From a virus: a stretch of DNA of 64,000 nt. Below are positions 4,993-63,357 of the stretch, one piece after another; the stretch's first letter is position 1, and every line of letters begins with the position of its first letter. The stretch is taken from IMG/VR virus record IMGVR_UViG_3300038620_000134, positions 17,725 through 81,724 of that record. The stretch is one strand, 5' to 3'. Made by a program: the position numbers and the translations under genes. Below the pieces are notes generated by a model. That model was given only the letters and a program-made list of their open reading frames with translations, searched no databases and was not told where the DNA came from.

Positions 4993-5901
4993 ATGAAATC
5001 ACCTAATAACAGAACTTTAACACTATCAGAAAAAGAAAAAGAGTGTTATTCAAGTAAATTGATTTCTTTGAATAGCTCTAAGATTAATCCTCCATATGTA
5101 AATGTTACAATTAATGGTAATTATGAAAAAGGTGTTAGTTTAATACAGCCCAATTCAATTAATCTTTTAGTTGCTGATCCACCTTACAACTTACCTAAAA
5201 AATACAATTCAAACACTTTTTCAACTTTAAGTTGGAAAGAATATGAAAACTTTACTCAAGATTGGATTGAAAAAGTGTTTCCTTTATTAACTTCAGATGC
5301 CAGTATTTATGTTTGTTGTGATTGGAAAAGTTCTTCAACTATTGAAAAAGTGCTTAATAAATATTTTTATTTACAGAATAGAATAACTTGGCAGCGAGAA
5401 AAAGGAAGGGGTTCTAAATCTAATTGGAAGAACTGTTTAGAAGATATTTGGTTTGCAACAGTATCTAACAATAGTTATTATTTTGATGTAGACGCGGTTA
5501 AAGTGAAAAGACGTGTTAAAGCTCCTTACAAAGAAAACGGTAAACCCAAAGATTGGCAGGAAGAAAGCAATGGAAACTTTCGGCTAACACATCCTTCTAA
5601 CTTTTGGAATGATATTACTATTCCCTTTTGGTCAATGCCTGAAAATACGGAACATCCCACCCAAAAACCAGAAAAACTAATTGCTAAACTTATATTGGCG
5701 AGTTCCAAAGTTGATGATATTGTTTTAGATCCTTTTTTAGGAAGTGGTACTACTTCGGTTGTTGCAAAGAAACTTAAAAGAAATTATATTGGCATTGAAC
5801 TGGATAGTAAATATGCTTGTATCGCTGAAAAACGATTGGAACTAGCTGAAAAAGATTCAACAATACAAGGATATGAAGACGGTGTGTTTTGGAAATATTA
5901 A
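4993..5901 (+). CDS. Orphan beta-class N6A/N4C DNA methyltransferase
   Basis: DPPY motif precedes HPTQKPEKL and DPFLGSGTT (motif I); no restriction gene adjacent. Confidence 0.93.
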   Translation: MKSPNNRTLTLSEKEKECYSSKLISLNSSKINPPYVNVTINGNYEKGVSLIQPNSINLLVADPPYNLPKKYNSNTFSTLSWKEYENFTQDWIEKVFPLLTSDASIYVCCDWKSSSTIEKVLNKYFYLQNRITWQREKGRGSKSNWKNCLEDIWFATVSNNSYYFDVDAVKVKRRVKAPYKENGKPKDWQEESNGNFRLTHPSNFWNDITIPFWSMPENTEHPTQKPEKLIAKLILASSKVDDIVLDPFLGSGTTSVVAKKLKRNYIGIELDSKYACIAEKRLELAEKDSTIQGYEDGVFWKY

Positions 5902-6113
5902 CTAAAATCAAGTTTTACATGAATTTAATAAACAAATTAAAAGCATTTTTTAACGGTAAAAAAACTGAAAAATCAGTTAAATTAAAATCAGCAGCTTTAT
6001 TTGACCATCTAGGTGTTAAACAACTAAATAAACCCGCTGTGCTTTCTGAAATATTTAATGAAAAGCCTATTGGGCATGAAAAATCTAATAATAGTTTACC
6101 AATAGGTTTTTAA
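5889..6113 (+). CDS. Hypothetical protein
   Basis: Short ORF; real start possibly at the internal MNLINK. Confidence 0.5.
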   Translation: MEILTKIKFYMNLINKLKAFFNGKKTEKSVKLKSAALFDHLGVKQLNKPAVLSEIFNEKPIGHEKSNNSLPIGF

Positions 6114-6156
6114 AACATAATAAGTAATGAATCTTCATGTATTAGATGCTTATTGC

Positions 6157-6244
6157 AGGGGGATGGCAGAGCGGTCGATTGCACCGGTCTTGAAAACCGG
6201 CAGCCAGCTACGCTGGTTCGGGGGTTCGAATCCCTCTCCCCCTG
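6157..6244 (+). tRNA. tRNA-Ser(UGA)
   Basis: Acceptor AGGGGGA/TCCCCCT, anticodon arm CCGGT-CT-TGA-AA-ACCGG, long variable arm, GGTTCGAATC; CCA not encoded. Confidence 0.95.
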
Positions 6245-6277
6245 CTTATGGTTTTTAACTAAAAATTAAAGTTTTGC

Positions 6278-6306
6278 TTGACACCTTCAAAAAGATTTAC
6301 TAGCTT
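6278..6306 (+). promoter_or_regulatory. Early promoter TTGACA-N17-TAGCTT
   Basis: Exact 17-nt spacing; same pattern at 10739, 19722, 21279, 21708, 22230 (+) and 31637, 40496 (-). Confidence 0.7.
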
Positions 6307-6342
6307 TACACCATTCCCGAAATTATTAAACTATTATAAGTT

Positions 6343-6963
6343 ATGACTAACACAACTAAATTTCCAATCGAAGAGCTTTACGCTGAGCCGGAAAAGTTTT
6401 TACTAGCAAGTGAAAATTACGATTTAGGTTACCCTGAGCTTTACTATTTAGCATATGGTAGCCTAATGAAGTGGCATTCTTGTGAGGCTCATTTGGTCTT
6501 GGTGAAGTTAAACTCAAATAAATACGGGCTTGGAGAGTCTGATTTAGAAGAATTTGAGCTTCGCCTTAAAATGGTGGCTAGTCTTTATCAGAACTGGCAA
6601 AATGAGCTGCAAGATTATTGGCAGTTATGTGACGAGTTCGGGGCCAGATATTCTATCACTCTAAGTGATGTTTATAAAAATTCGCTTCCGTTAGATGACG
6701 AAGGCGAACACGAAATTGAAAAAGTTAAAAACTTGAGTATTGAAGCTGCTAAAAGAGCTATTAAAGCAGAAAACTTAGCGGCGGTTAGATGGCTAAACCA
6801 GTTCTGGTTGGAGGCTGATATTTGGAAACAATTGAATTCTAAACCAGATTCTAAAAGAGTTGTACAAGCCCGCTGGTTAAAAGAGCTTTTCGTGTTTGAT
6901 CTTGTTGGAGAAGATAAGTATCCTATGTGGAAAAAACCATTATCGTCTTTTTCTGAACTTTAA
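6343..6963 (+). CDS. Hypothetical early protein
   Basis: 206-aa ORF directly behind an early promoter. Confidence 0.8.
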   Translation: MTNTTKFPIEELYAEPEKFLLASENYDLGYPELYYLAYGSLMKWHSCEAHLVLVKLNSNKYGLGESDLEEFELRLKMVASLYQNWQNELQDYWQLCDEFGARYSITLSDVYKNSLPLDDEGEHEIEKVKNLSIEAAKRAIKAENLAAVRWLNQFWLEADIWKQLNSKPDSKRVVQARWLKELFVFDLVGEDKYPMWKKPLSSFSEL

Positions 6964-7015
6964 TTGTTTTAATTATGCCAGACTTTACCAAAAATACGAA
7001 AAAGAAAATCAAAAA

Positions 7016-7043
7016 CTAAAAAAGAATTATAAAGCTTTTTTAG
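7016..7043. other. Hairpin upstream of tnpB (possible IS605 left-end relic)
   Basis: CTAAAAAAG-N10-CTTTTTTAG inverted repeat; low complexity. Confidence 0.35.
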
Positions 7044-7059
7044 TGATTATTGGCCTATT

Positions 7060-8250
7060 ATGAGTGAGCAAAAGACAATTTATAGAGCCTACAAGTTTCG
7101 ATTAAAGCCTACTAAAGAGCAAGCTGAACTGCTCGACAAGACTTTCGGCTGCGTACGGCTTATTTACAACTATATGCTGGCCCAGCGTAAGGAGCATTAT
7201 GAAAAGACTGGTAAATCTCCGAATGTCTACGAGCAATCACGCCAACTCCCAGAATTAAAACGGACTGAAGAATTTGGCTTTTTGAAGGAAATCGACTCAG
7301 CTGCGTTGGTTAGTGCTGTTTGGGATTTGGACGATGCTTATCAAAGATTTTTCAAAAAACATGGTAAGTATCCTAAGTTTAAGTCTAAGCACAAAAGTAA
7401 AAAAAGTTATAGTTCCTTTTCTAACACGTGCAAAATAAAAGGTGATCGTGTATATGCGCCTAAGTTTAAGAAACAGGGTATAAAAGTCATTGCACACCGT
7501 CTTATTGTGGGCAAGACTAAGACCATGACCTTCAGCAAGACACCTAGCGGGAAGTATTACGTTTCTATCTTTGTAGAAGAGCTATATACGCCCCCCGAAC
7601 CTACGGGTGAAGCTGTTGGTATTGACCTAGGTATAAAAGAGCTTGCTGTTACGTCGGACGGTCAGCGTTACGAGAACGCGAAATATTTGCAGAAATACGA
7701 GAAAAAACTGGCAAAAGCTCAAAAAGATTTAGCCCGTAAAAAGGGAAGTAAGAAATGTGAGGAAAAAAGCAATAGCTATATCCGTCAAAAACAGAAAGTC
7801 GCCAAGCTGCATGAGAAGGTAGCAAATTCGAGAAAAAACTTGCTGCACGAAATATCGCGGGAAGTCGTAGATAACTATGATACGATAGCTTTGGAAGACT
7901 TGAATGTTCAAGGTATGAAGCAAAACCGGAAACTGGCCAAAAATATCAGCGACGTTAGTTGGGGTATGTTCAAAGAAATGCTAAAATACAAGGCAGAACG
8001 AGATAATAAACAGGTTGTGGCGATAAACCGATATTATCCAAGCAGTAAAACCTGCCATATTTGCGGGGATGAGAAGGAAAATCTAAGTCTCTCGGAGCGA
8101 GAGTGGACGTGTTCAAACGGCCACGTCTTAGACCGGGACCTGAATGCAGCAATAAATATATTAAATCAAGGATTACTAAAATTAGAATCGGCAGCAGATG
8201 TCGATAACACGGGTGGAGTCGAAGTAAATCCTGTTTCGACAGGTGTTTGA
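7060..8250 (+). CDS. tnpB: IS200/IS605-family RNA-guided nuclease TnpB, array-associated
   Basis: N-terminal YKFRLKPT..Q...L..TFGC.R.IYN; RuvC-I GIDLG, RuvC-II LEDL, zinc ribbon CHIC...CSNGH, RuvC-III DRDLNAAINI; D-E-D triad intact. Confidence 0.96.
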   Translation: MSEQKTIYRAYKFRLKPTKEQAELLDKTFGCVRLIYNYMLAQRKEHYEKTGKSPNVYEQSRQLPELKRTEEFGFLKEIDSAALVSAVWDLDDAYQRFFKKHGKYPKFKSKHKSKKSYSSFSNTCKIKGDRVYAPKFKKQGIKVIAHRLIVGKTKTMTFSKTPSGKYYVSIFVEELYTPPEPTGEAVGIDLGIKELAVTSDGQRYENAKYLQKYEKKLAKAQKDLARKKGSKKCEEKSNSYIRQKQKVAKLHEKVANSRKNLLHEISREVVDNYDTIALEDLNVQGMKQNRKLAKNISDVSWGMFKEMLKYKAERDNKQVVAINRYYPSSKTCHICGDEKENLSLSEREWTCSNGHVLDRDLNAAINILNQGLLKLESAADVDNTGGVEVNPVSTGV

Positions 8251-8319
8251 CTATGAAACTCGAAGCTCTTTCAAATTTGAAGAGGGAATACCTGACGCAA
8301 GGAAGCGAGGAAAAACGGG
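8187..8319 (+). ncRNA. omegaRNA/reRNA scaffold plus native guide (5' end approximate)
   Basis: Stems ATCGGCA/TGTCGAT, CGGGT..AGTC/GACT..ACTCG, CCTGT-TTCG-ACAGG and terminal hairpin CTCTT..AAGAG ending CTGAC at 8296; overlaps the tnpB 3' end as expected. Confidence 0.8.
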
Positions 8320-8579
8320 GTCGGAGTCCCTCTGCAATTTTGAGAGGGTATCTGACTCATAGATAATTTTTATTTTATTTATTCAGTAAAAAGTCGGAGT
8401 CCCTCTGCAATTTTGAGAGGGTATCTGACTTAATCCGCTTATTTATGTTACGAACTGATCACAAAAAAAGGTGAGAGTCCCTCTAACACTTTGAAAGGGT
8501 ATCTGACAAAGAAGTGCTTGAGGCTTGCGATGCCAGAATTAAGTGAGAGTCCCTCTAACACTTTGAAAGGGTATCTAAT
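8259..8579 (+). CRISPR. CRISPR-like mini-array: degenerate first unit 8259-8296 plus four 37-nt repeats (8320-8356, 8393-8429, 8471-8507, 8543-8579)
   Basis: R1=R2 GTCGGAGTCCCTCTGCAATTTTGAGAGGGTATCTGAC; R3 GTGAGAGTCCCTCTAACACTTTGAAAGGGTATCTGAC; R4 as R3 but ending TCTAAT; unique spacers of 23, 36, 41 and 35 nt. Confidence 0.92.
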
Positions 8580-8670
8580 GTTGACAAGGTAAAATGAAAA
8601 ATTGAACATGAAAGAAGAAGAGCGCTATTAGAAATAATAAGATATATTAAACCACCAAAATAAAAGTACT

Positions 8671-9978
8671 ATGAATATGGAATACCCTGAAATTTATGCG
8701 TTTTCTGGAAAAATAGGTTCTGGAAAAAACTTCATGGCAGAAAAAATATTTCCTGAATATCTTTCTTCTAAGTCCACACTTGTAATGGCATTTGCCGATG
8801 TATTTAAAGTTAGGGCTATCATTGAAGAGGGTTTAGATGAAAAGAAAGTATTTGAAGGGCCGAAAGATGAGGAAACACGTAGAATCCTTCAAATTTATGG
8901 CACTGAAGAAGGACGTGATAAAAAAGGAGAAGATATATGGTGCAGGTATTTGGAACAGTATATTAGATTATATTCTCAAAGAAAATCTATTGAAAGGGTT
9001 ATTATAACAGATTTACGTTTTGAAAATGAAGCAAACTATTTAAGATCACTTGGAGCTTATTTGATTCGTGTAGAAGCACCTAATAGAAACAAAAGTGCAC
9101 TTGAACAAGAAGCGTCCAATAAAGATGGCAACGTTCAATATGATGTTTATAATAAAATTTCGCAACACCCTAGTGAAACAGGTTTAGATAACTGGACAGA
9201 TTGGGATTTAGTAATTCATAATGATTACGAAGATTCTCCTTATATCCACATTCGTGATTGGGTAGTAAATCACCGCGAATCTAAACATTTTTATTCGCAT
9301 GTTGTTTTGATAGATCTTGATGATACGGTTGTTAGTTGTGGTCAAAAATATCATGAAAAAATTGACAAAGCATGTGATCTTATTATCAAGGAAAAATCTA
9401 AAAATTTAACTAAAAAACAAGTAAAAAATACTTTTAAAGAGTTGGATTCTGATCGCCTTAATTCTTTTTATGATCGCTATCGGCTTTCTAAAAAATTAAA
9501 AGAGTTGGGAGTTTACTATAACGTATCAAGTTCTACACTAGAAAAATTATATGAGCTGGGTATTCAAGTTTATAAAGATACGTTTGAATATCTTTCAGGG
9601 TCTTATGAAGCACTAAATTTACTTTGGAAAAATTTGGATAATAATGATAAATTGATTATCTTTACACTTGGAAGACGCGAAGATCAAGTTCGAAAAATAC
9701 ACGAACTTGGGCTTTTTGATATTGAGCATGAAATTGTTGAAACAAGAAAATCTGATGATGTTTACCAACAAGTTAAAAAAGATTATCCAGCTAATAAATA
9801 TACTATGATTGGAGATTCTTTGGAAAATGATGTTTATCCTGCATTATCAGCAGACTTTAACAATATTTATTGGGTAAATAGTTATTCTAATCAAAGCTCT
9901 TTGTATGATTATTTTGTTGTGAAAGACTTACAAGAGGCTGTTTATCATTTTTTAAACCTAAAAGATAAAGTAACATGA
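8671..9978 (+). CDS. dNMP-kinase-like P-loop domain fused to HAD phosphatase
   Basis: GKIGSGK, R.ILQ.YGTE, ITDLRFENE, HPSE; then DLDDT and MIGDSLENDV HAD motifs. Confidence 0.88.
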   Translation: MNMEYPEIYAFSGKIGSGKNFMAEKIFPEYLSSKSTLVMAFADVFKVRAIIEEGLDEKKVFEGPKDEETRRILQIYGTEEGRDKKGEDIWCRYLEQYIRLYSQRKSIERVIITDLRFENEANYLRSLGAYLIRVEAPNRNKSALEQEASNKDGNVQYDVYNKISQHPSETGLDNWTDWDLVIHNDYEDSPYIHIRDWVVNHRESKHFYSHVVLIDLDDTVVSCGQKYHEKIDKACDLIIKEKSKNLTKKQVKNTFKELDSDRLNSFYDRYRLSKKLKELGVYYNVSSSTLEKLYELGIQVYKDTFEYLSGSYEALNLLWKNLDNNDKLIIFTLGRREDQVRKIHELGLFDIEHEIVETRKSDDVYQQVKKDYPANKYTMIGDSLENDVYPALSADFNNIYWVNSYSNQSSLYDYFVVKDLQEAVYHFLNLKDKVT

Positions 9979-10787: not shown

Positions 10788-11201
10788 ATGATTATGATTT
10801 TTCGCGATTTTCAATTCTCCGACCCAGCGGATAATCTTTCCTTCGCTCACGCGGCGCTAGCACTACATCAAAGCGTATCTATACTTTATGATTTCCATTT
10901 AATATGTGAAGAAAATCAAAACCTACTCAATCAAGTCAACCCCCAAATTATTGAAGAAAGCCTTGATTGGAGGTGGAATCAATTATTTGAGTTTGATTTC
11001 AGGGTGCGGGAATTTCTCCAAATCTCCCAGAATGAATTATACGAACTAACGGTACGAAGAAAAGGGTTTGATTTTTTGCTCAAACAAATCGAAAAAGAAA
11101 CGTTAGAAATTTTTGAAAGGCAGCGTATTGAAGGTGATTATCACTTGGATTTACAAGGCACCGTTAAAAAGAAGATGGCCGAGAATTGGCCATCTATTTG
11201 A
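10788..11201 (+). CDS. Hypothetical early protein
   Basis: 137-aa ORF after promoter. Confidence 0.75.
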   Translation: MIMIFRDFQFSDPADNLSFAHAALALHQSVSILYDFHLICEENQNLLNQVNPQIIEESLDWRWNQLFEFDFRVREFLQISQNELYELTVRRKGFDFLLKQIEKETLEIFERQRIEGDYHLDLQGTVKKKMAENWPSI

Positions 11202-16715: not shown

Positions 16716-18797
16716 ATGACTTCATATAATGAAAAAATAGCACAAAAATTAGAAGAATTAGACAACAATTATATTAAAAGTGGTGCTATATATGATAACC
16801 AGGTTGACGCAGCCAAAGAAATAATAAAAAGCTTTACTAAAGTTGATTCAGGAAAGAGTGAAAATGATAGCAGAAATAGACATGTTATTTTATTAGCTCA
16901 AATGCAAAGTGGAAAAACCGGTGTGTGTAATGCCGTATGTAATATGCTTGAATATGTAAATCCCGATAATCAAATTAAATTGTCTAGTTATTTTGGTATA
17001 AAGCGTTACTTTTTTATAACTGGAATGAATGATGTTGCTTTAAGAGATCAAACTGCTAATCGCGTCAAAAATGAAATTATTAATTCATATTCAAAAATTG
17101 ACAATAATGAAGATGACCATTTAGGTAAGTATATTGTAACTGGTGATAATATAGCAAAACCAGAAGCAAAATACTTTATTGAAAAAAATAGTGATTTAAA
17201 AAAGGAAATAAATGCAAACATAGAAGACTGTATAGTATTTATTGATGAATCCCACTATGGTTCTAAAGAAGAAAACGTGTTGACTAAATTTTTAAAAAAT
17301 AATGATATTGATTGGAAAAACGATCCACAAAAATTAAAAAATAACAATATTTATATTGTTTCTATTTCAGCAACTCCTTTTACTGAAAGTTATAGTGATA
17401 AGAATGAAAGTAAACCTAAAATATCACTAGAAACAGATAATAATTATTATGGAGTAAAAGAATTTTTAGATTTGGGATTGATTCATCATGCAGATAAAAA
17501 AAGTGATTTTAAAAGTAAGAGTTTTTTTCCCCAACCTAGTAAAAAAAAACGTTTGGAAAACTTTAGAAACTACATTGCACAAAACTTCTTAGGTTCTAAG
17601 GTAACCGTTGAACAAATGGTCAATATCTTTAACTACTACTTTTCCGATATAATGAGAGAAAAACAAGCCAAGAGCAATCAATTCAAACAAAAAATGAAAA
17701 TGCTTTTTGATATTGAAGATAAGAAAAGTGGAAGAACTCGTTACTATAAAATTAATAGTATAAAAAACTTTGATAATTTTGATGACAAATATTTTATTAA
17801 TAAATTTAAACCTGAAATAAAAAGTACTAAACAAGAACCTAACATTGTTGAGTATCTTAAAGATGCACATTCTAGAATGAAGCAAAATTCACAAAGTTTA
17901 ACACCTATAGGTGTATGTATTGTAAGATGTGATGGTAAAAAAATTCAAAAACTAAAAAATAATGACTTTATTAGCAGTTATTTTAGGATAATAGAGTTTA
18001 ATAATGAAAACTACAAAAAATTAAATTTTGGTACTGAATTAAAAGATAAAATTGAACTAATGATAAAATCCGCTTCAGATTCTAATAAACATGCAAATGA
18101 TAATTCAAACAAACCTCTTTTAATATTGATTAAAGGGGCTTTTCGTGCAGGTATAACTATACCTAATTATTATAAAGATTACATATATATGATATATGAT
18201 ATTGCTAATAAACCCCACACTACAGCTCAAGGTTTACTTGGTAGAATGTGTGGTTATAGAAGTAACGATAGTAACATAGAAAATACTGCTTTTTATGTAA
18301 ATAAAGATCATGCAGAAAAATATGCAGATTGGGTAAAGAATAACTTTAAAAGAAAATACATACCAATAAAAAAGAAAAAAAGAAGCAGTGTAAAATGTGC
18401 AACAGAAAATAAATTATCTTTTGGTCTTGACTTGGATTCTGTTAAAAAATTAAAAAAATCAAACGATCTAAAAAAAACATTAAGTGAATTAAATGTTTCT
18501 ATAGACTTTGATTATATAGGAGAGACATACTTAGCAAATAACTATCGAAATTATACAGAATATAGTCAAAGTGTTAAAGACAAATGGTATGATATAATTA
18601 ACAGTAATGAACGTGGTGTACCAAGTTATAGGCATAAGAAAAAACCTTTAACTGAAGATGATATTGGAAAAACATATATACATTTAGCTTTGAATGACAT
18701 TGATAATGAACTTTATATATATAAAGGAAAAATTGTCAAAAGTAATCCACAACACAAAGAATTATATGAAAAGCATAAAGACACTTCTGAATTTTAA
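16716..18797 (+). CDS. SF2 (DExH-like) helicase/ATPase
   Basis: AQMQSGKT, DESH, SATP, QGLLGRMCGY motifs. Confidence 0.85.
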   Translation: MTSYNEKIAQKLEELDNNYIKSGAIYDNQVDAAKEIIKSFTKVDSGKSENDSRNRHVILLAQMQSGKTGVCNAVCNMLEYVNPDNQIKLSSYFGIKRYFFITGMNDVALRDQTANRVKNEIINSYSKIDNNEDDHLGKYIVTGDNIAKPEAKYFIEKNSDLKKEINANIEDCIVFIDESHYGSKEENVLTKFLKNNDIDWKNDPQKLKNNNIYIVSISATPFTESYSDKNESKPKISLETDNNYYGVKEFLDLGLIHHADKKSDFKSKSFFPQPSKKKRLENFRNYIAQNFLGSKVTVEQMVNIFNYYFSDIMREKQAKSNQFKQKMKMLFDIEDKKSGRTRYYKINSIKNFDNFDDKYFINKFKPEIKSTKQEPNIVEYLKDAHSRMKQNSQSLTPIGVCIVRCDGKKIQKLKNNDFISSYFRIIEFNNENYKKLNFGTELKDKIELMIKSASDSNKHANDNSNKPLLILIKGAFRAGITIPNYYKDYIYMIYDIANKPHTTAQGLLGRMCGYRSNDSNIENTAFYVNKDHAEKYADWVKNNFKRKYIPIKKKKRSSVKCATENKLSFGLDLDSVKKLKKSNDLKKTLSELNVSIDFDYIGETYLANNYRNYTEYSQSVKDKWYDIINSNERGVPSYRHKKKPLTEDDIGKTYIHLALNDIDNELYIYKGKIVKSNPQHKELYEKHKDTSEF

Positions 18798-18817: not shown

Positions 18818-19147
18818 ATGTCAACATCTTTACACTTTGATATAGGGCTTCCAGTTGAAAGTGAATTATCCAAATACAATTTAAGTGTTTATCAAGATGA
18901 TGTTGATTCAAAGTTTCTTTGTTATAATAATCAAGATATTATTCCTATCTTAAATGAAAATTTAGAAGATTGTTTAATTTTAACTGCAAAAGGAAATAAA
19001 ATACAAGAAGTAATAAAAATATTAGTTGAAGAATTTGGGGGGCGTTTCATAACCGATGATGAACTTGAGCTAATAATTTATGGAGAAATAGAAGAAAGTG
19101 AAGCATTTAATTATTCAATGGATACATATTATTACAAAAGTAAATAA
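18818..19147 (+). CDS. Hypothetical protein
   Basis: 109-aa ORF. Confidence 0.7.
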   Translation: MSTSLHFDIGLPVESELSKYNLSVYQDDVDSKFLCYNNQDIIPILNENLEDCLILTAKGNKIQEVIKILVEEFGGRFITDDELELIIYGEIEESEAFNYSMDTYYYKSK

Positions 19148-59447: not shown

Positions 59448-59996
59448 ATGGGTAATAGTAAAGGAAAAAAACACTACACTGTTTATCAAACTATCAATTT
59501 GTTAAACGGCAAAAAGTATATTGGAACCCATGTAACCGATAATCCATATGACGGTTATCTTGGATCGGGAAAACATCTTAAAAATGCCATAAAAAAATAT
59601 GGAAAAGAAAACTTCAAAAAAGAAGTGCTTTACGATTGTAAAGGTGAAGAAGAAATGTATGAAAAGGAAGCAAAATTAATAACAGAAGAAGTTGTCAAAG
59701 ATAAAATGTACTACAATAAACTTATAGGAGGAGATGCTCGCCACAAAATTGGATTTATAGCAAATTTGGGTTATTGGGGACTTAGAAATAAGTTTGATAG
59801 TGAATATGAGTATTCCGAACATATGAAAAAAATAGGACAGAATAGAAAAGTACAAAGTTCAAAAATAACAAAAGTTTGTTCAAACTGTAAAAAAGAATTT
59901 GAAACGGTAGATAACAAAAAGCAAAGAAACAAAAGGTTTTGTACGTTAAGTTGTTCATCTAAACATAGAGAAAAAACTAAAAAACAATCCAGTTAA
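59448..59996 (+). CDS. Free-standing GIY-YIG (Seg-like) homing endonuclease with C-terminal zinc finger
   Basis: VYQT.NL.NGKKYIG.H, YLGSG..LK.AIKKYG.ENF.KE, YYN; CxxC...FCxxSC. Confidence 0.9.
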   Translation: MGNSKGKKHYTVYQTINLLNGKKYIGTHVTDNPYDGYLGSGKHLKNAIKKYGKENFKKEVLYDCKGEEEMYEKEAKLITEEVVKDKMYYNKLIGGDARHKIGFIANLGYWGLRNKFDSEYEYSEHMKKIGQNRKVQSSKITKVCSNCKKEFETVDNKKQRNKRFCTLSCSSKHREKTKKQSS

Positions 59997-62612: not shown

Positions 62613-63002
62613 TTATTTAAGGGTTAGCAAATAGCTTACTTTACTAAGTAAATTTTGGGCTTCAAAAACAATATGCTCAATATCAGCGTCTTGCTTTTTG
62701 TCTAATATTCCCATATTCCAAATGTCTTCATTTAGAAACTTTATAGATGAATGTATAAAGTTTTGAAGGTTAGTATCATCATAATTTATGAGTTCAATTT
62801 TTCCAGTTCCTTGAAAATAAATTCTACCATATTTTCCTTGATAGGTTTCAATCAATCTATCAAAAATATCAACGAGACCCTCATACATTACTTGGAGTGC
62901 ATTGTGTTCAGCATAAGAATTTGTCTGTAAATGTAAAATATGTGCTTGATCTCGCATCCTAAGAATTTCTGTTAAAAGCATTTGGGAGTTATAGTTTTTC
63001 AT
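62613..63002 (-). CDS. Ferritin/Dps-like four-helix protein (DUF5856-like)
   Basis: HLQT.SYAEH.AL...YE.L....D.L.E.YQGKYGR, YLLTL. Confidence 0.85.
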   Translation of the reverse strand: MKNYNSQMLLTEILRMRDQAHILHLQTNSYAEHNALQVMYEGLVDIFDRLIETYQGKYGRIYFQGTGKIELINYDDTNLQNFIHSSIKFLNEDIWNMGILDKKQDADIEHIVFEAQNLLSKVSYLLTLK

Positions 63003-63357
63003 ATTTTTATTTTATTTATTTGGATTTATTAACTTTTTAATGTATTCTACAAGTTCATTTTGTGTTGATGTTTGATGAAAAAATCTAAAAGCTAAACCAG
63101 AATCTCCATGTTGGTTATATTGGTTAATATATCCTTGTAAAAATCCTGTCATAGACTGGCTTTTATAAAATTCTTTGTTTTCTTTTATTTTATTACTCGT
63201 TGTTTGAAAAAAATATTTTAATACAGCATCACTTTCATCATAGATTAGATTGGGTGTAAGAAATTTGTCTAAAGAAAGTTATTTTTTAAAAAAATCAACA
63301 AAGCCACATATTGAGTATATATTAAATTATAATGATTATAAAAACTATATAGACAAT

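Follow-up and report, generated by a model that had tools for sequence, protein, structure and literature searches.

Canonical TnpB elements take as their guide the DNA flanking their right end. In ISDra2-type TnpB systems (IS200/IS605 OMEGA), the 3' end of the gene also encodes part of the omega-RNA scaffold, and the guide directly follows a conserved terminal hairpin, hairpin and guide being present once. It has been proposed that arrays arise by serial duplication of omega-RNA segments, and the definition of type V-U* given in the same source requires at least two associated clusters (PMC10691335). TranC has been presented as an intermediate whose omega-RNA is divided into a tracrRNA and a crRNA, and TldR, Cas12m and Cas12c as RNA-guided repressors from the TnpB/Cas12 lineage that do not cleave DNA, the guides of TldR targeting promoter regions (PMC13565253). 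Viruses can also carry CRISPR mini-arrays; those known, according to PMC11656645, borrow host repeats and host Cas proteins, and most of their spacers target related viruses.

Here we analysed a tnpB locus in a stretch of 64,000 nt of viral DNA (the window; positions 17,725 to 81,724 of IMG/VR record IMGVR_UViG_3300038620_000134), in which terminal hairpin and guide occur five times. The protein has the size, domain order and intact catalytic triad of ISDra2-type TnpB, and here too the 3' end of tnpB forms part of the predicted scaffold, with a guide directly after the conserved hairpin. The locus differs from ISDra2-type elements by having no TnpA, no recognisable left end and a single copy. 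With type V-U* and TranC it shares an array downstream of a TnpB-like effector, repeats apparently derived from the omega-RNA 3' end, and the absence of cas1 from the contig. Compared by these groups' descriptions, the phage effector is an ordinary TnpB of 396 aa with no additional domains, and the association with an array is absent from 80 relatives, in contrast to the two or more clusters of the V-U* definition. Like viral mini-arrays, the array is short and viral, and one spacer (S1) has hallmarks of regulatory DNA of a close relative; unlike them, it comes with its own effector and with repeats that appear to stem from the effector's own RNA, and no matching virus was found. S1 lies over a promoter/leader region, as TldR guides do. 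However, cleavage is lost in TldR, Cas12m and Cas12c, whereas the phage TnpB retains its triad and no perfect target was found in its own sequenced contig.

Results

The contig comprises 81,724 bp (81.7 kb), with a genome completeness of 31% (CheckV), leaving 69% unseen, and represents about one third of a jumbo-type myophage; 12.5% of the phage genome is non-coding. A megablast search of GenBank phages yielded zero matches, and relatives of the tail sheath protein in the collections reach at most 46% identity. Because of these two results, a close relative of the phage appears to be absent from the collections.

The tnpB gene (7060..8250, +) was identified by its open reading frame, by Pfam and PDB matches and by triad alignment, and encodes a predicted RNA-guided nuclease of the ISDra2-TnpB type (396 aa). 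The Pfam domains HTH_OrfB_IS605 (3.7e-21), OrfB_IS605 (4.5e-27) and Cas12f1-like_TNB (5.9e-23) were all found above their curated cut-offs. The ISDra2 TnpB structures (PDB 8H1J/8EXA) matched at an E value of 3e-65 over residues 9-395, that is, over the full length, and LaTranC (PDB 9JFO) aligned to residues 231-369 only. The RuvC triad D189/E279/D360 occupies invariant columns among 25 aligned sequences and stands opposite the D, E and D of 8H1J that we take to be the catalytic residues of ISDra2 TnpB. The catalytic residues are thus intact, and the protein is predicted to be nuclease-competent. A protein search for a close relative of this TnpB found none.

The contig holds one copy of TnpB. 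We found neither a Y1 TnpA (in the 31% of the genome that the contig covers) nor Cas1 in it, and upstream of tnpB there is no recognisable similarity to the left ends of relatives, so that a TAM was not derivable from left-end homology. This TnpB has apparently been immobilised.

Nucleotide conservation with 12 relatives crosses the tnpB stop codon and ends sharply at ...TGAC/...TTCAC, where the first guide, S0, starts (8297..8319, +; 23 nt, 57% GC). The predicted omega-RNA scaffold (8185..8296, +; start approximate) is conserved with the same 12 relatives and overlaps the tnpB 3' end. Its terminal hairpin, R0 (8258..8296, +), corresponds in the alignment to the final hairpin conserved in the relatives and constitutes a diverged first repeat, with S0 as the guide on the full scaffold. 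Four 37-nt repeats with start-to-start distances of 73, 78 and 72 nt complete an array of five units directly 3' of tnpB. These are R1 (8320..8356, +), followed by spacer S1 (8357..8392, +; 36 nt, 11% GC); R2 (8393..8429, +), of the same sequence as R1, followed by S2 (8430..8470, +; 41 nt, 29% GC); R3 (8471..8507, +), a variant with seven differences from R1, followed by S3 (8508..8542, +; 35 nt, 43% GC, motif-free); and the final repeat R4 (8543..8579, +), whose degenerate 3' end reads ...TCTAAT, not ...TCTGAC.

R1 and R2 form a strong hairpin (-19.4 kcal/mol, z -4.0) that none of 200 shuffles equalled in stability; the hairpins of R3 and R4 are weak. By eye, R0 and R1-R4 are akin in a CGAAG/CGGAG box, a hairpin and a ...CTGAC tail, and R1-R4 appear to have been copied from the hairpin that ends the TnpB omega-RNA. 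The homology of R0 with the 3' hairpin of the omega-RNA in the 12 relatives fixes the orientation of the predicted guides. Inspection of the predicted folds by eye gave four to five possible base pairs between scaffold and repeat 5' box and no anti-repeat in the scaffold that would pair convincingly with R1-R4. The R1-R4 units would presumably be processed and loaded onto TnpB.

No further copies of the repeat are present within the contig, and the repeat pattern had 0 matches in IMG/VR and 0 in JGI metagenomes. Among 80 relatives of this TnpB encoded on viral contigs (39-55% identity), no comparable array was detected next to the gene; the screen flagged three, of which two were inspected and carry other repeats, and L032 was left uninspected. 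The association of TnpB and array is therefore not conserved and could be a recent accident. The phage occurs in four tidal-flat metagenome runs, and the array was unchanged, with 0 differences, in runs from separate studies (S0-S3 in run X1; 8401-8553 in run X3). An Rfam scan returned two sub-threshold matches, both due to chance, and a sigma-70/terminator scan was not informative.

A motif [A]ATAAATA, followed by an A-rich leader and ATG, precedes 23 of the 89 predicted genes of the phage, including that of the tail sheath, at motif-to-ATG distances of 8-32 nt. Counting both strands, the 81,724-bp genome contains 45 copies of the 8-mer ATAAATAA; 26 of them precede a predicted ATG by 0-60 nt in sense orientation. 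The motif constitutes a genuine, recurrent and oriented signal upstream of genes of this phage. As [A/T]ATAAATA in sense orientation upstream of genes, it is similar to the gp55-dependent T4-type late promoter (TATAAATA). The T4 consensus is short and its first T is variable, often A in T4-like phages (PMC1524935). Distant relatives of the phage bear GATATATA instead, which was found upstream of the sheath gene in all 39 examined, ATAAATA being present in just four of the 39. PHROG scans of the motif-bearing genes returned mostly unknown functions, the tail sheath being the only clearly late function among the genes scanned. For this reason 'late' is not confirmed gene by gene, and we use it as a probable label.

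An earlier note on this DNA had claimed that S1 and S2 are antisense to the late motif, and the motif sequences quoted there for both reverse complements were reproduced. In S1, the reverse complement consists of the late-type motif, a 15-nt A-rich leader, ATG and a further A, and the distance of 15 nt falls within the observed 8-32 nt. The best match to S1 in the phage's own genome is the leader and start (62999..63020, -) of a Dps/ferritin-like gene (62613-63002, -; phrog_858 at 6.5e-16). The two sequences had been described as equal apart from a 5-nt insertion, and this is accurate: S1 positions 1-4 and 10-27 recover all 22 bases, with the one insertion in the first 9 nt of the guide. Outside this core, S1 and the leader agree at only about two of the nine next bases (by eye). 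S1 is therefore not a copy of that locus.

We built a 25-nt profile from the 23 real leaders, which themselves score 12.8-23.0. The S1 reverse complement scored 14.9, inside this range, and a score at least as high was reached at 34 of 162,700 genome positions (P ~0.005 per random 36-nt window). Among the phage's own leaders, S1 matches one exactly over 18 nt, a length reached by 0.25% of 2000 shuffles (P = 0.0025), and three others at 17/18; similarity is inflated here by low complexity, S1 being 89% A+T. The 8-mer ATAAATAA itself is expected in 1.4% of random genome windows of 36 nt and 1.7% of those of 41 nt, and it arose in 7.1% of composition-matched shuffles of S1 and 0.98% of those of S2. 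For its presence in at least two of four spacers, a calculation proposed in the note, we obtained a chance of ~1e-3. We conclude that S1 is a convincing match to motif, leader and ATG, antisense to the guide.

S2, which sits between the repeats at 8393-8429 and 8471-8507, contains ATAAATAA in its reverse complement, but the extended leader signal is missing: it scored -2.8 on the profile, as high as or lower than 3,507 genome positions (P ~0.7). The proposed antisense relationship thus holds for S1 with the full signal and for S2 with the 8-mer alone, at marginal significance. S2 may share the origin of S1, but the evidence for this is weak.

The spacers were searched for protospacers with a shared 5' TAM, as the note had suggested. 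In the phage's own 81.7-kb contig, blastn-short and seed-anchored Hamming scans found no protospacer for any spacer, and S0 had zero matches. A blastn search of GenBank phages with 8250-8600 returned just A+T-rich chance matches to S1 (E >=1), and exact patterns in IMG/VR (a 20-mer of S0, 28-mer of S1, 24-mer of S2 and 22-mer of S3) had 0 matches each. Among the 160 loci examined, matches to S1 were never above 18 nt. Several candidates were rejected. One match to an S2 20-mer in JGI metagenomes (L161) was identical over 22 nt and then unrelated, in a locus of 51% GC, and was attributed to chance. An S3 20-mer gave five matches in GTDB genomes, in five unrelated taxa, none of which extended beyond 27/35. 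A recurrent 12-13-nt match of S0 to one conserved coding site near the sheath gene amounted to 12-14/23 overall, and a 12-nt seed match of S3 in the phage's own gene at 59619-59638 to 21/35 overall (shuffle P = 0.89).

With no protospacer found, no TAM can be read and no target gene named; proof is lacking for target and TAM alike, and even for the spacers being foreign. A target may lie in the 69% of the phage genome outside the contig. The suggestion that the guides aim at late promoters of related jumbo phages therefore keeps the signal match of S1 in its favour and lacks a protospacer. Such related phages must be very close kin, since all 39 distant relatives carry GATATATA and only four carry ATAAATA.

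The note had alternatively suggested that the guides regulate the phage's own late genes. In TnpB and Cas12 guides, the first 9 nt form the TAM-proximal seed. The matches of S1 to own leaders occupy guide positions 10-27, and the first 9 nt differ by the 5-nt indel. Over the first 20 nt, the best own-genome sites have at least four mismatches to S1 and at least five to S2 (in the sequenced contig, 31% of the genome). Self-repression is unlikely, because D189/E279/D360 are intact and the phage's own leaders mismatch the guide seed.

Discussion

Our best reading, which we put forward tentatively, is that S1 is a guide taken from the start of a late gene of a sibling phage and that it would direct cleavage of that phage in co-infection. 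A small array would have arisen by copying of the 3' module of the omega-RNA (terminal hairpin plus guide), so that R0-S0 is now succeeded by three spacers and four 37-nt repeats. S1 would have been captured from the promoter, leader and start codon of a late-type gene. The donor phage would share the [A]ATAAATA signal and would most likely be a close relative or a sibling strain. We know of no mechanism for spacer capture here. The S1 guide would pair with the coding strand of its target, with the TAM-proximal seed on start codon and leader, and TnpB would cleave rather than repress competitor DNA, leading to exclusion or homing. Seed mismatches would spare the phage's own leaders, which have only the TAM-distal core in common with the guide. 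Exclusion or marker homing by a phage TnpB would resemble the T-even homing endonucleases. We are doubtful of the wider proposal that the whole array is a Cas1-independent phage weapon, in which several guides represent sibling late-gene starts, TnpB cuts rivals and own alleles escape by seed indels.

The array might instead be a functionless relic, in which slippage or unequal recombination duplicated the omega-RNA 3' hairpin and trapped A+T-rich intergenic phage DNA, so that its units would not be guides. We consider this unlikely, if still a serious alternative. It would account for the absence of arrays in all 80 relatives, the degraded R3 and R4 (the latter without the ...TGAC tail), the irregular spacer lengths of 23, 36, 41 and 35 nt, and the lack of Cas1 in the contig and of protospacers in the searched collections. 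A trapped intergenic piece would often look like a leader, because late-type leaders abound between the genes of this phage: although non-coding DNA makes up only 12.5% of the genome, 26 of the 45 copies of the motif are found immediately upstream of genes, and sampling of intergenic DNA would therefore by itself enrich the motif. However, the spacers are not copies of any sequence in the 81.7-kb contig, S0 (57% GC) and S3 (43% GC) are unlike phage intergenic DNA, R1 and R2 are identical with very stable folds, and separate samples hold an identical array. Recombination could also have joined former IS right ends, each with the flank of an old insertion site, into repeat-spacer units, an origin that we regard as improbable. 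S1 would then record an insertion at a late-gene start and, in an extension to which we give no higher probability, would guide the cutting of the uninterrupted sibling allele and so spread the element. The variable spacer lengths suit arbitrary recombination junctions, and conservation in the 12 relatives stops precisely at the boundary of right end and guide. TnpB homing, moreover, is described in work cited by PMC11656645. On the other hand, the contig has no TnpA, no recognisable left end upstream of tnpB, a single TnpB copy and no repeat outside the array; the late gene would not survive an insertion at codon 2, and no empty-site or alternative-site contig was seen across four runs.

That an A/T 8-mer arose accidentally in A+T-rich, low-complexity spacers has, in our view, a slim probability. 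The 8-mer appears in 7.1% of composition-matched shuffles of S1, the profile score of S2 is matched by 3,507 random genome positions, and the GenBank phage matches to S1 are all A+T-rich with E >=1. Chance accounts poorly, however, for the fit of S1 to the entire 25-nt profile (P ~0.005), its 18-nt exact match (P = 0.0025), the ATG at the right distance from the motif, and the 8-mer in two or more of four spacers (~1e-3). Regulation of the phage by itself, in which guides would bind late promoters or leaders of the phage and adjust late transcription in the manner of nuclease-dead TnpB/Cas12 relatives, seems very improbable. The S1 core equals four own leaders at 17-18/18 nt, TldR, Cas12m and Cas12c provide precedents (PMC13565253), and 69% of the phage genome is unseen. 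The matches nevertheless lie in guide positions 10-27 and the presumed seed differs by the 5-nt indel; every own-genome site has four or more mismatches in the first 20 nt; and with the RuvC triad intact, a perfect own-genome target would be cut. It would be hardly more plausible for S1, and perhaps S2, to act in place as a late promoter that fires leftwards, its RNA being antisense to the array and tnpB and shutting the system off. Both motifs face tnpB, and the S1 reverse complement is a complete motif, leader and ATG that opens a 29-aa frame (8271-8360, -). The T4 late consensus is short (PMC1524935), and T4-type late promoters need little beyond the 8-mer. Against such a promoter, there is no gene downstream on the minus strand, where the unsupported 29-aa frame crosses repeat and guide sequence, two of two motifs share an orientation with P = 0.5, and the extended signal is missing from S2.

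Should S1 function as a guide, as in our preferred reading of a sibling-derived guide, the locus would show the use of an incipient, adaptation-free CRISPR-like array at its birth and would indicate that phages use TnpB in conflict with their own kin. It would also mean that gene starts bearing a common late signal can serve as targets without cutting of the phage's own DNA, and that a compact 396-aa nuclease naturally accepts several guides. If the whole array is a weapon, a natural transition from TnpB to CRISPR would have been caught on a virus. If the array is a relic, what remains is a domesticated TnpB with one spacer-like piece of a late leader trapped behind it.

In run X1, a minor variant of S0 carried two substitutions. 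This R0/S0 variant, together with one contig in the same run that fuses other DNA to the R1/R2 repeat, suggests diversity at the locus.

A tnpB gene followed by a CRISPR-like array

The gene at 7060–8250 (+ strand) encodes a protein of 396 aa in which all three TnpB Pfam domains are present. Residues 9–395 align with the solved ISDra2 TnpB (8H1J, 8EXA; E 3e-65), and D189, E279 and D360, invariant in an alignment with 24 homologues, stand opposite acidic residues in 8H1J; we take them to be the RuvC triad by ISDra2 numbering. The nearest homologues are just 55–56% identical. By all sequence tests the protein is a TnpB, and a transposon context is absent. Cas1, Y1 TnpA, a second TnpB and extra repeat copies were absent from the 81.7-kb contig, and no left-end similarity to relatives was visible upstream of tnpB. 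The G+C content of the tnpB region (window 6001–8000) was 38%, versus 26–34% around it, in keeping with a recent acquisition. The upstream neighbour encodes an N6/N4 DNA methylase (4993–5901; 2.9e-43), and the downstream one (8671–9978) a dNMP-kinase-like domain fused to a HAD hydrolase domain. The IMG/VR record of 81,724 bp was judged 31% complete and encodes a tail sheath of 1149 aa, relatives of which (31–46% identical) lie on contigs of up to 434 kb. Because of the sheath and the size of these contigs, we regard the record as a fragment of a large myophage.

Four 37-nt direct repeats lie 3' of the tnpB stop codon, starting at 8320 (R1), 8393 (R2), 8471 (R3) and 8543 (R4), that is, 73, 78 and 72 nt from start to start. 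They enclose three spacers, S1 (8357–8392, 36 nt), S2 (8430–8470, 41 nt) and S3 (8508–8542, 35 nt). R1 and R2 are identical, R3 differs from R1 at seven positions and R4 from R3 at two. When the tnpB 3' end and adjoining flank were aligned with those of 12 relatives on viral contigs, nucleotide conservation continued beyond the stop codon, took in a CGAAG box and a hairpin whose arms show compensatory changes, and ended at ...GGGTAGTTCAC, corresponding to 8296. Therefore R0 (8258–8296, + strand; tail ...GGGAATACCTGAC), the equivalent of the conserved hairpin of the relatives, is the omega-RNA's terminal hairpin, with S0 (8297–8319, + strand) as its native guide, and R1–R4 are copies of the hairpin. 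From the homology of R0 it also follows that each guide is on the + strand and lies 3' of its repeat. The R1/R2 hairpin is very stable (−19.4 kcal/mol; 0 of 200 shuffles were equally stable), folding of R3 and R4 is weak, and no convincing anti-repeat between scaffold and R1–R4 was seen in the folds.

By structural definition this is a CRISPR-like array. Relatives were screened for 24-mers with ≤4 mismatches at a spacing of 45–110 nt, and no such array was found behind tnpB in the best 80 viral-contig relatives, with three loci flagged (L032, L039 and L063). The two inspected were rejected: L063 is a 21-nt coding tandem and L039 holds coding repeats plus one 57-nt pair. This direct-repeat pair (L039 3750–3877; 82% alike, spacing 71 nt) lies ~107 nt past the TnpB protein match and is not CRISPR-like. 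Since conservation across relatives failed and spacer matches were zero, we do not file the array under an established type V subtype. In its way of working, it would come closest to an incipient system of TranC/V-U type, here carried by a virus. The array fits a proposed origin of type V arrays in which segments of the omega-RNA are duplicated serially (PMC10691335), and also the TranC idea of a split omega-RNA, as outlined in a review passage (PMC13565253) referring to Jin et al. 2025.

Likeness of spacers to a late-type leader motif

A simple ATG-ORF gene call on the contig gave 89 genes, 23 of which are preceded by ATAAATA and an A-rich leader of 8–32 nt. The motif ATAAATAA has 45 copies on both strands, 26 of them sense-oriented and 0–60 nt (mostly 7–22 nt) upstream of a start codon; aligned leader instances share a further conserved A before the motif and A's 4–7 nt after it. 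It is similar to the late consensus of T4, TATAAATA, in which T4-like phages often have A in place of the first T (PMC1524935). We infer its 'late' character; when genes bearing the motif were compared with PHROGs, the tail sheath was the only one with an evident late function. In 39 sheath loci of distant relatives, hand-picked for upstream sequence from 80 fetched, GATATATA was present upstream of the sheath gene in all and ATAAATA in four only. The ATAAATA signal is thus lineage-specific. GATATATA, a late-type signal distinct from ATAAATA, lies ~35 nt upstream of the sheath genes (L082–L160) inside a conserved leader ...GATATATAGTCTAGAAGCAAAAATATCTT.... By eye, several predicted genes in the small-gene block (starting at 10788, 16716 and 21765) have TTGACA-type boxes upstream (e.g. 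TTGACAAC...N...TATCTTAG), which resemble a distinct early promoter class of sigma-70-like type.

The reverse complements of S1 and S2 quoted in the earlier note are correct, and S1 indeed equals 62999–63020, the leader and start of the phage's Dps/ferritin-like gene (62613–63002, minus strand), except for a 5-nt insertion after the fourth base. The 18-nt core of S1 is matched at 17 of 18 positions by three more of the phage's own leaders (genes at 18818, 31687 and 38329), and past this shared core the resemblance of S1 to the 63020 site ends at once. The identity is that of a leader family consensus rather than a locus-specific copy.

That the motif occurs in two of the four spacers beyond chance was convincing for S1 and marginal for S2. 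On a 25-nt profile, the S1 reverse complement scored 14.9 (real instances: 12.8–23.0), a value reached at only 34 of 162,700 genome positions, or ~0.5% for a random 36-nt window. Its longest exact genome match, 18 nt, was equalled in 0.25% of 2000 composition-matched shuffles, and its ATG follows the motif by 15 nt, within the observed range (8–32 nt). The 8-mer of S2 occurred in 0.98% of shuffles and 1.7% of genome windows, and its flanks misfit (profile score −2.8, equalled by 3,507 positions). As a piece of a late leader, S1 is suggestive and S2 weak, and the target of either would be putative.

Search for protospacers

The earlier note had looked to protospacers with a shared TAM. The 81.7-kb contig held no second or near copy of any spacer, GenBank phages, among which this phage is without a close relative, gave chance matches only, and exact seed patterns of S0–S3 retrieved nothing from IMG/VR. 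With protospacers absent from all collections searched, no TAM could be read. A JGI metagenome contig (L161, 11463–11484) was rejected as S2 target: the first 22 nt are exact, the remaining 19 nt unrelated, and we judged the match to be chance. L161 was the sole JGI contig with the S2 20-mer; the site falls within an open frame, the DNA there has a GC content of 51%, and by our estimate ~1 such match is expected by chance. A TnpB guide of 20 nt would nevertheless fall wholly within the matching stretch. The S3 20-mer was found in five unrelated genomes, none of which extends, and these were likewise discarded.

Possible role of the guides

In TnpB and Cas12 systems the guide follows the scaffold or repeat on its 3' side, with the TAM-proximal first nucleotides acting as seed. 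The seed of S1 would cover the start codon and leader of a target, with the 8-mer at guide positions 19–26; in S2 the 8-mer would occupy positions 10–17. As the nuclease is intact, it would cleave a perfectly matching target rather than only bind it. Leaders of the phage itself have only the distal core in common with S1; with a 5-nt indel or at least four mismatches in the first 20 nt, they should escape cleavage. On the simplest reading of these sequences, S1 would derive from a sibling phage that shares this late signal, and would serve inter-phage conflict. Viral mini-arrays are known in inter-virus conflict (PMC11656645); the role would be alike, but here, unlike there, the phage supplies both effector and repeats.

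Regulation of the phage's own late genes, which the earlier note had offered beside the targeting of related phages, would draw on the leader likeness of S1; we consider it very improbable, as the intact triad and seed mismatches count against it more than against any other reading. Plain chance behind the likeness is improbable, less for S2 with its misfitting flanks than for S1 with its profile score. A functionless relic, in which the array trapped intergenic DNA, is unlikely but deserves some weight, given the empty protospacer searches, and we are somewhat more doubtful that the spacers are fossil flanks of earlier insertions, that is, homing guides. There is only a slender chance that S1 acts as an antisense promoter in situ, where it could fire from its present location. 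The ATG in its reverse complement opens a 29-aa frame (8271–8360, − strand) across R1, S0 and R0, which is probably meaningless.

Array variants in metagenomes

Four tidal-flat metagenome runs from four studies contain the stretch, and the best-matching run may itself be the sample from which the record came. Logan contigs of one run (X1) cover S0–S3 with 0 differences, and those of another (X3) cover 8401–8553, also with 0 differences. A minor 89-nt contig of X1 (window 8261–8349; depth 4 versus 11.4) carries 8291 C>T, which turns the R0 tail into TATCTGAC, as in R1–R3, together with 8307 G>T and 8315 A>C, both within S0; these are the sole differences listed across 6300–9700 in this run. This contig may derive from a variant strain or from a second locus. 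In another X1 contig, 52 nt that do not resemble the window stand before the R1/R2 repeat (from 8393). The last 30 nt of this stretch include a CTCGAAGCT box similar to the one in R0; this 30-mer is absent from the 81.7-kb contig. The repeat thus exists in another context in the X1 sample, and the two contigs together may reflect diversity among strains or the presence of a second locus.
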